Assembly (NCBI GenBank): GCA_044892505.1
Contig: CM097883.1
Location: 115,010,001 to 115,074,000 of the forward strand
Source: Schmidtea nova
Taxonomy: Eukaryota
Length of the DNA stretch: 64,000 bases
Direction: 5' to 3'
The translations under genes and the position numbers were made by a program. Shown here piece after piece: positions 23,135-29,507 of the stretch; position 1 is the stretch's first letter, and each line of letters starts with the position of its first letter. The notes under the pieces are model-generated. The model saw only the letters and a program-made list of their open reading frames with translations. It was not told where the DNA came from and did not search any database.

Positions 23135-25648
23135 GTAATGAAATTATCTGTAACCTAATTTAAAATAATTAATTTAAATATATTTAAAACAAATTTTATT
23201 TGTTTCTTTATTCATTTACGTCAATCAATACTATTTACAAGTTGTATTTATATTGCACAAATCAACCATTTTAATAACCAATCAATGATCGAAAGTTTTG
23301 CTAAACTGTTACATTGAAATGATGATAAGGGACATTGAAAATGAGGTAACAGTATATTTGTTATTAGAAATATGTTCGAGTATGAAGCTTTGGCAGATAA
23401 AAACCATCACAAAGTGCGTTCTGTTTGCAATGTTCTGCTACTGGATAAATACATGACAAATTATCATAATATCTGTTTTAATGTATTTTATTTTATTTTT
23501 TAACATTTGATTTCACATATGGTAAAAGTTTTATACGGGTTTTTGAAATTAAAAATAACATATTTTTAAGGTTACGTATATGGGTAGAGCCGGATATGGC
23601 TCAACAATAATTAAGTTTTGGTTTGAAATGTTAATTTTATTTTTTATTAATTTAAATGATTTCTTACTATTCTTAACGTAATACATTGCAATAAATTATT
23701 ATTTCTTGTGTGAAATTTCTTACAAGATTCCACTAGCAAACCTTGTACCGGGCCCCACTTTTGTCCTATATATATATACCAAGGTGTACAAATATGTTAG
23801 TAAAAATAAAATGTAATAAGGCTTCAAAACAAAGATCGAAATTATTGCACATGACAAGAAGATTAAGCAAAAAACCTAATAAAACTTCGATATTAAACTT
23901 TGCAATTCATTTTGATTGTCAATAATATATATTGGATAATAATTGGAAATTTTCTTTTTATACATTATTTTTGATGAAATAAGTAAATTATTTTTATTAA
24001 AAAAATATACATTAAAATCACTATTAAATAACAGAAAGATAAGAACAGCAATGATACACTTATTTTGCACAATTGTTCACTTAAGTGCGTTTACATTAGT
24101 AGTTGTTAATTATGCCAACGAAACACGGGAAAAGGTAGAAATTTTGCCTAAATTTTGGCATAATTAATGAACGAAATGTTACTTTGACTTCTAAAAGCAC
24201 TTTGATATGCCGAATGTGTACATGTAGATAGCAATTTTTTAACATTTATAAATATAGTATTATTTCACAAATTCATATTTTTATTAAAATTTTCAACCTT
24301 TGTCGCCTTTTGACTACGTTTTATATATTTGATCTATTGTCTGAAAATATTTTATCATAAAAAAATACTCAAATCTCTAATAATTCCAAAATAATCAATC
24401 ACGTGGAATAAATGAAGTCTTAAATTTAAAAATTTTATGTAAAATGTGAAACAGTAAACATAAATAATTCCTGAGAAAGAATTTAGAAATTTTGAGTAAT
24501 TTTTTACTTTTATACAACTGAATCAAAATATAAAATTGCTTCCCACGAGATTTTATCTTATTTAAATCCAAAGACCTAGCACTTCTAAAAATCTATTGTT
24601 TGATACTTATGATCAATAGTTATTCAATATAATAAAAAATAATCAAATAACTGATTATTGAGCCCCCTATTGAAGCTAAAGATTTATCATTATCCTTTGA
24701 TTTTTTTAAATTAAATAATTTTTATATTAATTTTTGTAAGAATTTTTTTTGATCTATAATCTTACAAAAATTAAATGAAAATTATGGAATTAAAAGGTTT
24801 ATTTTTGGTATATATTCATATAAGCTAATCGCTGTACAAATTACATTTTTTAAATCGCTCGTAGTTTACATTACTATCAAGCAGCTTTTAAATAATAATT
24901 ATTTTTAATAGTTTAATAATCAAATCGTTTAAAGTTAGAGAACTGACTGAGAAACATACCAGGAAATTTATTCGATTGATCAATATGTAAAATTAACAAA
25001 TTATAATTAACATTGAAAACATAAATTATTGAAACCGTTTCATAACCAATAATGATTCTATAAACAAAATATTTTAATTTGACAATATATCGACGTAAAT
25101 AAATATATTTCAAAGCAATCAATCAAATAAAATTATTATTTACAAAAATAATAGAAAATTTATAAATTAAATGAGCATGTAAAAAATATGGTTTTTAAAT
25201 TCATTTCAAATTTTAAATTAATTTGAATTTACATTAAGTTGTCATTTTAGATTTTAAACAAGCTTATTGAAATAGATAAACTATTTTTTCACTTTTAATA
25301 TTAATTTAGTCTTACAAAATCGTAAAATCTAACTAAAACTTTAATACGAACATAAATATAGTTTATTTTAAAATGTATCCTTAAAAATAAATTATTAATT
25401 AAAATATTTATTAATATATTAAATTTATTGGAATTTTATAGGGTTTCTTAATTTATAGTGTAATCTTTGCATTTAATAGTGCTAATATTTCCTTTAATAG
25501 TATCAATTTTTTATTAATAGTGTTTTAAATTTAATACTAATAAATAAAATATTAACACTAGTGTTGGGCGGGGTATAAGTGTAAATAATAGTGTAAATAT
25601 CAAAGCATAACCGTATACGTATGGGTATATGTATTGTAAATGTTGAAA

Positions 25649-26035
25649 ATGAGAAAAAGAGCATAATGTATATAATATAGAAAAATAAATCAAGAAATAA
25701 CAGAAATGACAATGTTGATGAGATGGAAAATATCATACGATATGTTAGCCAGAGTCGTCAATGAATTGCAAACTCAGTTAACAGCGAAGACTCACTTATT
25801 AACCGAAAGCTACAATTGTAATTTCGAAGGAATCAATAGAATTGAAATGCAACAGAGGCAAATAAATGAATTGTTAAGCGAAAATCAGATGTTGAATGAA
25901 GTAAACAATTGGCAGATAGAGGAAATAAATCGGTTAACGAATCAATAGGACAATGAATTGGATGAAAGTTGGACGACCTGGGCCGTGGACAAGATGAATG
26001 TCAACCCAGAGCCCGATTCCACGAATGGCGTATAG
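25649..26035 (+). pseudogene. Cassette ORF1, short coiled-coil protein
   Basis: One frame from ATG 25649 to TAG 26035 with three internal stops. Heptad-like VVNELQTQL...IEMQQRQINELLSENQMLNEVN. Confidence 0.55.
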
Positions 26036-26121
26036 AAAACAAAAGCGGAAAATTGTACATATATGTAGATATCAAAACCAGAAAAAAATAAAAGGAGAAT
26101 TCATGTAAATATCGTTGTAAA

Positions 26122-27511
26122 ATGAAAACAGAAAATGAGTAAGACTATCAAGGAATCGAAGTATTGAGAGAAGAAAACAGACAATGGGAATAAACAGTCA
26201 CGTCTGGTAACCGAGACAGGCAGCATGTGAATGCAGAATGTGCACCAAACGTATATTACAAATAACAAGTGATGGTAGGACAAATAAATGCCCCGAATGT
26301 GACGAGACAATATTAAGTAATGAGACAAGACCAGATAAAGCAATTCAAAAAGAAATATGGAGTACGAAAACTACTTGTGTAAATCAACTGTATGAATGAG
26401 AAGGACAAGTAATGGAATTCAGACAACATTTGGAAAACAAAAAAGCAAGAAAACGACATGCGAGAAGTGTCAACAAACGATAATAATCAAGAACCAAGAG
26501 AATCATAGAAAAGAGTGCAAAGCGGAAGTAATATCATGTCAATATTGCGATCAAAAGAAAACAAGAAAGAAAATCGAAGAAGAACACCTCAACATAACAG
26601 AAGAAAGAATATGTCACAAGTATATGAAATTATGTCCTAACAATTGCGAAATAAAAGAAGAGGTGATACTACAAGAACATTGGGAACAGTGTTAAACAAA
26701 ACCAAGAAAGTGTAAGTGAAACAAACAATGATGTGGAACAATGAATACGAGAAAGGACATAAAATAACACTTAGAATCGGAAACAGTGCAACACGCGGAA
26801 ATGTTAACCAAAAATCTATACAAGTTAGAGCTAACCATACAGAAATTCGAGAAAGAGATCGAGTCACAAAAGATCATGATGTAATTACTGTTGGAAACAA
26901 GAGAACAATTTGAACTTACAAGAGAGAAGATGATGGGAAAAATAACTGTGATAGAAAAGTTGACCAAAGAAATAAAGGTGCAGCACAATAAAACCGTACG
27001 GGATACGGAAGAAATAGAAAACCTACCAGTTGCACCATATGTATGGAAGATCACAAAATTTACGGATCAATTCATAGCAGCTCAAACTGAAAGACAAATA
27101 TTAGTGACAAGTCCACCATTTTATCTATGGAAGAACGAATACAAAGTCAGAATGAGAATATATCCGAACGGAAATAAAAAAGGAAAAGGGATTCATTTAT
27201 CGCTATTCATTGCATTGTACAAAGGCGGATATGATGACATGTTAGAATGACCACTAGAAGCAAAAGCTTTAATAAAGATTAGAAACTCATGAGAAACAGC
27301 ACAAAGATTGTTTACAACCGATACAAAGCAAAAGGCATATGCAAAACCAACGGAAGAATGTGGATTAACGACATGAGATCCAAACTTCATGTCACAAGAG
27401 AAAGTATGGGAAATGTTATACGACGACAACCAATACGTGGAATTAGAGGCCGGGAAGAGAAAGAGTTCAAATACGACAAGTAGAAAGGCAAAGAGAGGAT
27501 GGTTAGAGTAA
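26122..27511 (+). pseudogene. Intronless TRAF-family (TNF receptor-associated factor) pseudogene
   Basis: RING (PRQAACECRMC...CPEC), TRAF zinc fingers (CEKCQQ...HRKEC...CQYC...H...C...CPNNC...HWEQC), coiled coil, and MATH (YVWKITKF...SPPFY...YKVRMRIYPNG...HLSLFIALYKGGYDDMLE*P...PNFMSQE). Multiple stops and frameshifts. Confidence 0.9.
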
Positions 27512-28771: not shown

Positions 28772-28845
28772 AAGTGGGGAAAAATCATGTATATACATGT
28801 AAAAATCGATGTCAAAATGTAATAACAGTTCTGTAAAGTGAAACA

Positions 28846-29380
28846 ATGAATTGGCTCGTAATCCTATTAATCACAACAATCATAATCCTCTCAACAATCC
28901 AAAACCCTCCAAGAGCAGAGATCCTAAGGAACATACACGACAAGATATCCGAAGAAATCGAAAAGCTATTTAACGAAGTCAAAGAAGAGTTATAACAATT
29001 ATTCCAAAGAGTGAAGCTACTTCCAGAGAATACCCAAACGTTATCAAATCAAGTAGATAAAATTCAGAAGATCCACAAACTATGGCGAGAAAACCAAAAA
29101 CCCGTCAAAAGTCAATCCCAAATCGAAACAGAAACCCAAGAAAAATGGATCATCATGGGAATAATCTTTGACCCTCACAACAAGCATTCTAATCATCGTA
29201 ATCACCTACATCCTCTACAGAATCAGAATCCCCAAACAGAAACAAACAATCATGAATATATCAGCAAGAAGAGATACCAAAACCCAACAAAAAATGAGAA
29301 GTCATCTTACCCCAATTCAATCCAGATATGAATTACGGTCAATTAATGAGAGAACCCAGAATCAACCCTATGCGAGCTGA
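28846..29380 (+). pseudogene. Cassette ORF4, small type I membrane protein
   Basis: Signal-like MNWLVILLITTIIILSTI, helical ectodomain, TM WIIMGII/LTLTTSILIIVITYILY (one frameshift near 29165), and a basic cytoplasmic tail. One internal TAA. Confidence 0.7.
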
Positions 29381-29507
29381 AACATTGAAGAACTTGTATG
29401 GAAACATTATTGTGCATATGTATAAAGCTTCACCTTATGTGATTATTTGTTATTATGTAAATTGCCATTTATCTAATTAACTTTTTATGTATGTTGAAGT
29501 AGGAGGA

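Follow-up and report, generated by a model that had tools for sequence, protein, structure and literature searches.

Decayed cargo of a giant Burro-type Gypsy element in Schmidtea nova and the TRAF gene carried by its open relatives

A 64,000-nucleotide (nt) stretch of the Schmidtea nova genome (contig CM097883.1, positions 115,010,001 to 115,074,000; hereafter, the window) contains four tandem coding regions, the second of which is related to genes for TRAF adaptors. This copy is a broken, 5'-truncated pseudogene cassette followed by the 3' long terminal repeat (LTR) remnant of a giant Gypsy element, and as a pseudogene it is inert and cannot act. Taken as a whole, this fragment is probably what is left of a Burro-type Gypsy element of ~29.4 kb whose open copies carry a captured TRAF gene, maintained by selection and likely to promote survival of host cells. 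The anatomy of the element, its copy number, the selection on its four frames, the decay of the copy in the window and the separate clade formed by the element TRAFs were observed directly.

The four coding regions lie on the same strand and are free of introns (Table 1), in an interval with a base composition of A 0.455 and T 0.201 and an A skew of +0.39. An initial annotation, made from the letters of the window, had described four tandem intronless open reading frames (ORFs) with strong A skew. The skew and the arrangement stand, but none of the frames is open: in a codon-level comparison with open natural copies (1,092 aligned codons), 23 premature stops and 10 indels that break the frame are counted in the cassette, and the longest ATG-started coding-strand frame within its interval is 106 amino acids (aa). 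The stop count places the death of this copy at ~0.11 substitutions per site, a rough figure that assumes equal rates. The same annotation saw a whole RING, zinc finger, coiled coil and MATH layout in ORF2, which holds in full for open copies and in the window for MATH, still above the Pfam cut-off in the window sequence itself (PF22486, E 1.8e-17); the window gene is a pseudogene, and a Pfam scan of its RING and zinc-finger part gave 0 TRAF-type matches, although this part and the N-terminal half of one open copy align at 57 to 66%. The spacers had been given as 86, 35 and 74 nt. The outer two are exact and the middle one was not reproduced: the first ATG lies 27 nt past the TRAF stop of the window, where the start of ORF3 is lost, and this spacer is 89 nt long in an open copy. 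Downstream, a decayed homologue of an LTR-encoded frame is recognizable at 34292-34590 (tblastn E 7.5e-8; tblastx E 3.5e-7). Upstream of position 25566 there is no match to the pol tail in the window, unlike in other copies, and the DNA upstream of the cassette shows no match to the LTR or to the rest of pol. The window copy might stem from a spliced or processed message, a reading to which neither this lack of matches nor the search for copies with a replaced context ahead of the TRAF (0 found; see below) lends support. The adjoining segment (25451-25565) is AT rich and apparently single copy, has a weak 21-nt tandem repeat, and meets the cassette exactly at the pol end of other copies.

Relatives of the cassette are found throughout the genome. 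When the MATH region was searched against the genome as DNA, 245 candidates emerged; among the 40 that were scored, the 39 other matches are 71 to 79% identical to the window. A 28-nt pattern from the beginning of the TRAF gene is matched exactly by 110 genomic copies. Seven regions were examined for paired LTRs, yielding three full-length elements, three loci where the span fetched shows no paired LTRs, and a single element of another family. The full-length elements, designated family I, measure 29,389 to 29,480 bp with ~22.9 kb internal. Their LTRs of 3.25 to 3.3 kb have TG...CA ends and are 99.9 to 99.97% identical within an element, with 4-bp target-site duplications. Frames upstream of the cassette encode zf-CCHC, a retrotransposon gag, a Monjiviricetes-type fusion protein, protease (PR), reverse transcriptase (RT), RNase H (RH), integrase (IN) and ankyrin repeats, with the env/fusion-protein match (PF24664, E 3.8e-73) located in frame upstream of the protease, between gag and pol. 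The cassette takes up the space that separates the stop of pol from the 3' LTR, and at all nine of the other family I loci checked that retain the pol-to-ORF1 junction (spacer 0), the pol tail lies directly upstream of it. The full-length relatives thus show the hallmarks of Gypsy/Ty3 elements (gag upstream of PR-RT-RH-IN, paired LTRs and target-site duplications), of which the window keeps the 3' LTR remnant only; no gag or pol of family I was found in the window. The initial annotation had read the cassette as cargo of a giant Burro-type Gypsy element and had proposed a search for intact copies and for linkage to gag, pol and LTRs. The three full-length elements, pol upstream in 9/9 other copies, the link to env and the 110 copies bear this reading out.

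Family I has further coding capacity outside the cassette. At L041:5236-8540 and L044:392-850, its leader encodes a 152-aa frame with an IAP-type RING, and its LTRs hold two frames each, of 211 and 193 aa; related frames in another locus (L030) match no Pfam family. Just after the 5' LTR, families I and II (the latter described below) have a conserved site, a candidate primer-binding site that may resemble one for tRNA-Pro. No BIR domain was found in family I, and a BCL2-like stretch before env, suspected by eye, gained no support, with no sequence match and a low-confidence fold (pLDDT 49).

What do the open copies encode? Their proteins are 116 (ORF1), 470 (TRAF), 387 (ORF3) and 174 aa (ORF4) long. 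The second is a full-length TRAF with RING, zinc fingers, coiled coil and C-terminal MATH domain, as the initial annotation had it when it spoke of a complete adaptor instead of a lone MATH domain. Pfam zf-TRAF and TRAF-RING matches are weak in open copies (below the cut-off in L031; zf-TRAF above it in L023). Among solved structures, a TRAF6 RING-zinc-finger chain matches the open TRAF at E 4.3e-13, and the best MATH matches are TRAF5/3/1/2 (E 3e-27 to 1e-24). The element TRAFs have a Cys-for-His RING, as do planarian host TRAFs, and are 26 to 35% identical to planarian and TRAF2/3/5-type adaptors. In a genome-wide search for the MATH family, where the best 150 of 2,419 candidates were scored, 63 of the 150 by our count each lie in an open frame of 476 codons.

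The partners of the TRAF are less readily classified. ORF1 is coiled-coil-like with an acidic tail and has a family II homologue at 37 to 40% identity, and ORF3 is a long coiled-coil protein with a proline run; neither has a Pfam family above cut-off, and for ORF3 this includes SMC families. All 11 distinct stop-reaching ORF3 tails listed, including that of family II (29% overall identity), end in E-T-x-V or a near variant, which fits a class I PDZ-binding motif, although the codon for the terminal Val overlaps with the spacer motif discussed below. ORF4 is a predicted membrane protein with a hydrophobic N terminus, a helical segment, a strongly hydrophobic helix at about residues 102 to 130 and a basic tail; its predicted fold of three helices is uninformative (pTM 0.31), and a Pfam match to GP41 lies far under the cut-off and was rejected. 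By eye, in a comparison with the consensus, no convincing TRAF-binding motif was found in ORF1, ORF3 or the ORF4 tail.

All four ORFs are under purifying selection in the family. Between open copies, the ratio of nonsynonymous to synonymous substitution rates (dN/dS), a comparison that the initial annotation had proposed, is 0.04 to 0.05 for ORF1, 0.07 to 0.12 for the TRAF, 0.06 to 0.11 for ORF3 and 0.15 to 0.19 for ORF4; over all computable pairs of the four ORFs it ranges from 0.04 to 0.44, in a set that includes several saturated ORF1 pairs and in which some loci are represented by two rows. Low ratios in all four ORFs imply a long-standing importance of these proteins to the element.

The element TRAF would trimerize via its coiled coil and would act as a ubiquitin-ligase adaptor or decoy beside the RING and ankyrin products of the element, a predicted role for which TRAF biology provides established background. 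Beside these products and, in family II, an IAP, it would most likely favor survival of element-expressing cells or blunt stress signaling. Weighing against this role, a serine-rich patch is altered in the element TRAF, at positions presumed to correspond to those of the vertebrate TRAF peptide groove, and binding of receptors in the manner of host TRAFs is therefore uncertain. Knockdowns in planarians point to a requirement for host TRAF-like genes in cell survival (available parts of PMC7586133 and PMC8807557), and Burro RNA is up in differentiated cells after smedwi-2 knockdown (available part of PMC8532177). Manipulation of host defense signaling by the element, suggested by the initial annotation, is a plausible prediction that had already been made in print (PMC6431247).

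The identification of the cassette is right but largely known, as Burro cargo including MATH/TRAF is in print. The review PMC6431247, the only text that our search on Burro, TRAF and retrotransposons found (most subscription papers lay outside it), lists in its accessible part MATH_TRAF_C, SMC, RING, BIR, ankyrin and BCL2-like motifs for Burro and already proposes that Burro cargo interferes with apoptosis and ubiquitination. From the same part, Burro1/GYPSM1 of Schmidtea mediterranea resembles family I in its size of ~30 kb, its gag-env-PR-RT-RH-IN order in one long frame and its ankyrin, MATH/TRAF, RING and coiled-coil cargo; Burro elements have internal regions of up to 25 kb and a total of ">30 kb," with family I slightly under at 29.4 to 29.5 kb. 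Unlike Burro1, family I has no MATH in its polyprotein, and its full TRAF stands second among the four separate frames that follow pol. Family I is therefore a Burro-type sister and not Burro1 itself, with Burro compared by its published description only. The Burro-like element of Dugesia tigrina also has MATH_TRAF_C on an accessory ORF and not in the polyprotein, but that ORF is described as lying upstream, whereas the family I TRAF lies downstream of pol (accessible part of PMC6431247). We did not find a four-gene block after pol with a full TRAF described, although the Extended Data of Grohme et al. 2018 may show this layout.

Two further families carry related cargo. Family III (L084:1794-9998, L085:2-5911; G000 C1 97.58-97.59 Mb) has the Burro1 layout, with MATH inside a gag-env-pol frame of 4,706 codons (polyprotein of ~4,900 aa in Burro1). 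Over RT-RH-IN it shares 81% identity with family I, its MATH clusters with the TRAFs of the cassettes in the tree, and in a polyprotein alignment family I skips ~200 residues where family III has MATH. Four internally deleted or rearranged family I copies (L087, L089, L023 and L135) carry in-frame fusions of pol or ORF3 parts with the TRAF or with its MATH domain; such fusions are a possible route to a MATH embedded in the polyprotein. Family II (L016:467-9998, L037, L139, L141, L143, L144; G000 C1 98.25-98.28 Mb and others) is ~28 kb long with 5.75-kb LTRs and has at least 150 copies, which are 99 to 100% identical over MATH. Its cargo comprises a TRAF, a BIR-RING IAP, and coiled-coil and membrane frames, so that the BIR domain known from Burro is found here as BIR-RING and not in family I. 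Protease and ankyrin repeats are present, but matches to gag, env, RT and integrase are absent in all five copies inspected. The LTR start and putative primer site are common to families I and II, and family II is likely a giant nonautonomous element mobilized by an autonomous relative. A family combining TRAF and IAP without gag, env, RT or integrase was not found described in the literature searched.

Where did the element TRAF come from, and did it give rise to the many TRAF genes of planarians? By our count, the best 150 MATH matches divide into 78 dispersed element-type and 72 host-type loci, classed mostly by place and frame length. Host arrays are dense at C2 404-455 Mb (L053-L082, L147-L150), which holds 63 of the 150, some of them in tandem at periods of 4.2 to 4.8 kb. 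Both array genes inspected have short A-rich GT-AG introns, and host loci show neither A skew nor element context. A MATH tree of 76 rows unites every element sequence in a single clade (SH-aLRT 98), which also takes in two unnamed database proteins but none of the 21 host rows. Two more careful trees support the element clade at 94/71 (MATH) and 94/92 (longer sequences) and the host array clade at 100/99 or better. Approximately unbiased (AU) tests, on groups defined once the first tree had been seen, reject a grouping of the arrays with family I (p 0.005) or family II (p 0.006). They do not reject the arrays with family III (0.126), the arrays as sister to all elements (0.275) or the elements with TRAF2-like host genes (0.404). 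The trees omit near-identical duplicates and multi-MATH database proteins, the first includes 45 of 112 single-MATH database proteins and the careful ones fewer, and the sampled host loci are the best scoring only. The named nearest database relatives of the TRAFs of this genome are planarian TRAFs; a word-indexed protein search found only four distant TRAFs. Element TRAFs share domain order with TRAF2/3/5-type adaptors and with planarian TRAF2-like genes (Smed-TRAF-2A/B, Dugesia TRAF2-like A and Dendrocoelum TRAF-2/-4/-5), the planarian ones also with the Cys-for-His RING; they differ in sequence at the identity given above, in their own long-branched clade, in the putatively altered groove patch and in being borne by an element. 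The simplest reading of the trees is that the element TRAF would derive from a single old capture of a planarian host TRAF, with the host arrays having grown independently in tandem. Against it, the element proteins are compositionally biased and may be pulled together in trees, and support for their clade is short of star level in both careful trees.

The initial annotation had instead seen retroelements as a possible source of the TRAF expansion. That Burro-type elements seeded this expansion, with the host arrays as domesticated element genes, would suit the 78 dispersed element-type loci, the AU tests that leave open the arrays with family III or as sister to the elements, and several conserved host TRAFs with an intron-free coding frame. 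Yet those intron-free genes group with Dugesia and Dendrocoelum proteins and are therefore old host genes, both array genes inspected have introns, the host loci lack A skew and element context, and a clade of the arrays with family I or with family II is rejected. The tree of element-borne against intron-containing TRAFs that had been proposed as a check gives two separate groups among the loci sampled, with no host gene nested among the element TRAFs, and we consider the seeding scenario very unlikely. A host immune operon or a single-copy gene cluster, for its part, would account for the operon-like spacing, the full TRAF architecture and the absence of family I gag and pol from the window. 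It has virtually no chance of being correct, however, given hundreds of dispersed relatives, their linkage to pol and LTRs, and the 3' LTR remnant and 33 disabling lesions of the window; a predominance of intact cassettes at syntenic, single-copy loci lacking pol or LTRs was not seen, and element linkage, decay and the 110 copies rule this reading out.

The spacers carry candidate expression signals. Identity between the window and open copies, measured for three spacers between genes and for the stretch before the LTR, is 73 to 82%, compared to 46% at fourfold-degenerate sites (65/142) and 52 to 55% for shuffles. The motif TGTANATA occurs six and seven times in two four-spacer sets against 0.4 expected. 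It is absent from ~20 kb of coding sequence and nearly confined to the sense strand, with antisense matches numbering 0 and 1. In all 10 junctions of families I and II, whose spacers are 40 to 267 nt long, TGTA(A/T)A starts 14 to 20 nt past the stop, whereas after the last ORFs it is found only at +70 and +116. A YAG ends no more than 7 nt before the ATG in 9 of the 10, compared to 24% of background ATGs with a YAG within 8 nt (118/486); it is kept across diverged copies, and intron acceptors of the host TRAF arrays are likewise A-rich YAG. A stop-linked signal only where a gene follows, together with an acceptor before each start, is the pattern expected of a trans-spliced operon. Complex retroviruses, too, have spliced accessory genes after env. 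Family I resembles both these viruses and nematode and flatworm operons in its short accessory frames behind replication genes, each with an acceptor-like YAG, and its spacers of <300 nt, a likeness at the DNA level; for neither system did we find a stop-linked TGTA(A/T)A described. Flatworm operons have gaps of up to 300 nt and are resolved by spliced-leader trans-splicing (available part of PMC12582326). Our literature search found neither these stop-linked TGTA(A/T)A and YAG spacer signals nor any LTR retrotransposon accessory genes with spliced leaders in flatworms, most subscription papers being outside the search.

How, then, would four genes behind pol be expressed? The cassette would be transcribed within the element RNA, which would be split at the spacers into single-gene messages. 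Most likely, a 3' end would be formed a short way past each stop, in a step coupled to trans-splicing of a leader at the YAG that precedes the following ATG. Judging from the spacer signals, the YAG has a slightly better than even chance of serving as a splice acceptor, be it in trans- or in cis-splicing, and operon-like processing as the expression route may be put forward tentatively, at less than even odds. Several points weigh against such processing. Only half of the spacers (5 of 10) contain AATAAA within their first 45 nt, with no enrichment over shuffles. A flatworm leader that ends in AUG would place this AUG out of frame wherever the acceptor precedes the ATG by 1 nt, and cleavage inside the element RNA would come at the expense of its full-length genomic form. 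A search for genomic copies in which the context upstream of the TRAF is replaced found none (0, compared to 110 matching the TRAF start), by a pattern that misses some donors. The accessible part of a planarian poly(A) survey reports that UGUA is not enriched upstream of the signal (PMC5068929), which also weakens a reading of the spacer motif as a CFIm-type UGUA enhancer. Cis-splicing as in complex retroviruses, which would join a leader exon within or close to the 5' LTR to each YAG, with messages ending in the 3' LTR, would make internal cleavage unnecessary and would equally fit the conserved YAG in 9 of 10 junctions. It is nonetheless unlikely: it leaves unexplained why TGTA(A/T)A is tied to the upstream stop and not to the acceptor, and why it is absent there after the last ORF, and the same pattern, with its missed donors, found no spliced genomic copy. 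The position of the motif past each stop and its strand bias also suit a single polycistronic RNA in the cytoplasm, read by termination-reinitiation or with Pumilio bound directly outside the terminating ribosome, or spacers acting as small internal promoters; the motif equals the Pumilio element UGUANAUA and resembles a forkhead site (RTAAAYA). These routes are somewhat unlikely, as they leave the conserved YAG unexplained (a purine at -3 covers it only partly), and spacers of up to 267 nt are long for reinitiation. Any other route is quite unlikely. Spacers as short introns fusing the frames into a single protein were rejected as a general model: only the TRAF-ORF3 junction is in frame, and spacer 0 distances vary among copies.

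The evolutionary meaning of the planarian TRAF expansion has been called unresolved (available part of PMC8807557). Our results make this expansion separable into intron-containing host arrays (63 of the best 150 MATH matches in one 50-Mb stretch) and element-borne copies (78/150), the latter of which would inflate transcriptome counts; MATH transcripts or domains number 99 to 121 in PMC6109357. TRAF- and ankyrin-domain messages are prominent among "genic" piRNA targets (available part of PMC6824462), and element cargo may offer a testable reason for their dominance there. In a broader conjecture, which we regard as rather unlikely, the giant elements would run their cargo as a host-style operon of trans-spliced messages, forming a cell-survival module of their own (TRAF, or TRAF plus IAP in family II). 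If so, many planarian "TRAF" and "ankyrin" transcripts and genic piRNA targets would be element cargo, and if the spacer model is true, a retroelement would be using operon-type RNA processing for accessory genes. The leads to pursue are the spacer signals and the nonautonomous TRAF-plus-IAP family.

Table 1. Features of the element fragment in the window (window coordinates)
Feature	Position	Strand	Observation
Spacer 0 (pol-to-ORF1 junction), 5' edge of element fragment	25566..25684	+	Alignments to other copies start at 25566; 82% identity to open copy
ORF1 pseudogene	25685..26035	+	Start codon lost; 1 premature stop, 0 frameshifts; 65% aa identity to open copy
Spacer 1, 86 nt	26036..26121	+	Three TGTANATA motifs; YAG before ATG lost, though present in other copies
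TRAF pseudogene (RING, zinc fingers, coiled coil, MATH)	26122..27511	+	12 premature stops, 2 frameshifts
Spacer 2 and damaged ORF3 start	27512..27605	+	
ORF3 pseudogene	27606..28771	+	9 premature stops, 5 frameshifts
Spacer 3, 74 nt	28772..28845	+	
ORF4 pseudogene	28846..29359	+	1 premature stop, 3 frameshifts
Untranslated stretch before 3' LTR, with last motif common to families I and II	29360..29554	+	73% identity to open copy
Diverged 3' LTR remnant, first part	29555..30894	+	Start is the LTR start of full-length copies; 60-67% matches to related LTRs up to ~30240
Multi-copy DNA transposon inside 3' LTR, foreign to the retroelement	30895..33465	.	Copies genome-wide mostly 95-96% identical; DUF4371 match below cut-off
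3' LTR remnant, second part	33466..34600	+	Right end not fixed

Elsewhere in the window, an open forkhead gene of FoxA type encoding 485 aa (14987-16444, + strand; PF00250, PF08430) lies ~9 kb upstream of the cassette, and at 52142-53746 (+ strand) an open frame of 534 aa matches no Pfam family at E 0.01. Positions 5109-6148 hold fragments of a DDE transposase (PF01359, PF13358). Decayed RT, RNase H and integrase fragments of other LTR elements occupy 41671-46800, a segment that includes a pair of direct repeats of ~140 nt, 3 kb apart (41671-41816 and 44687-44834).

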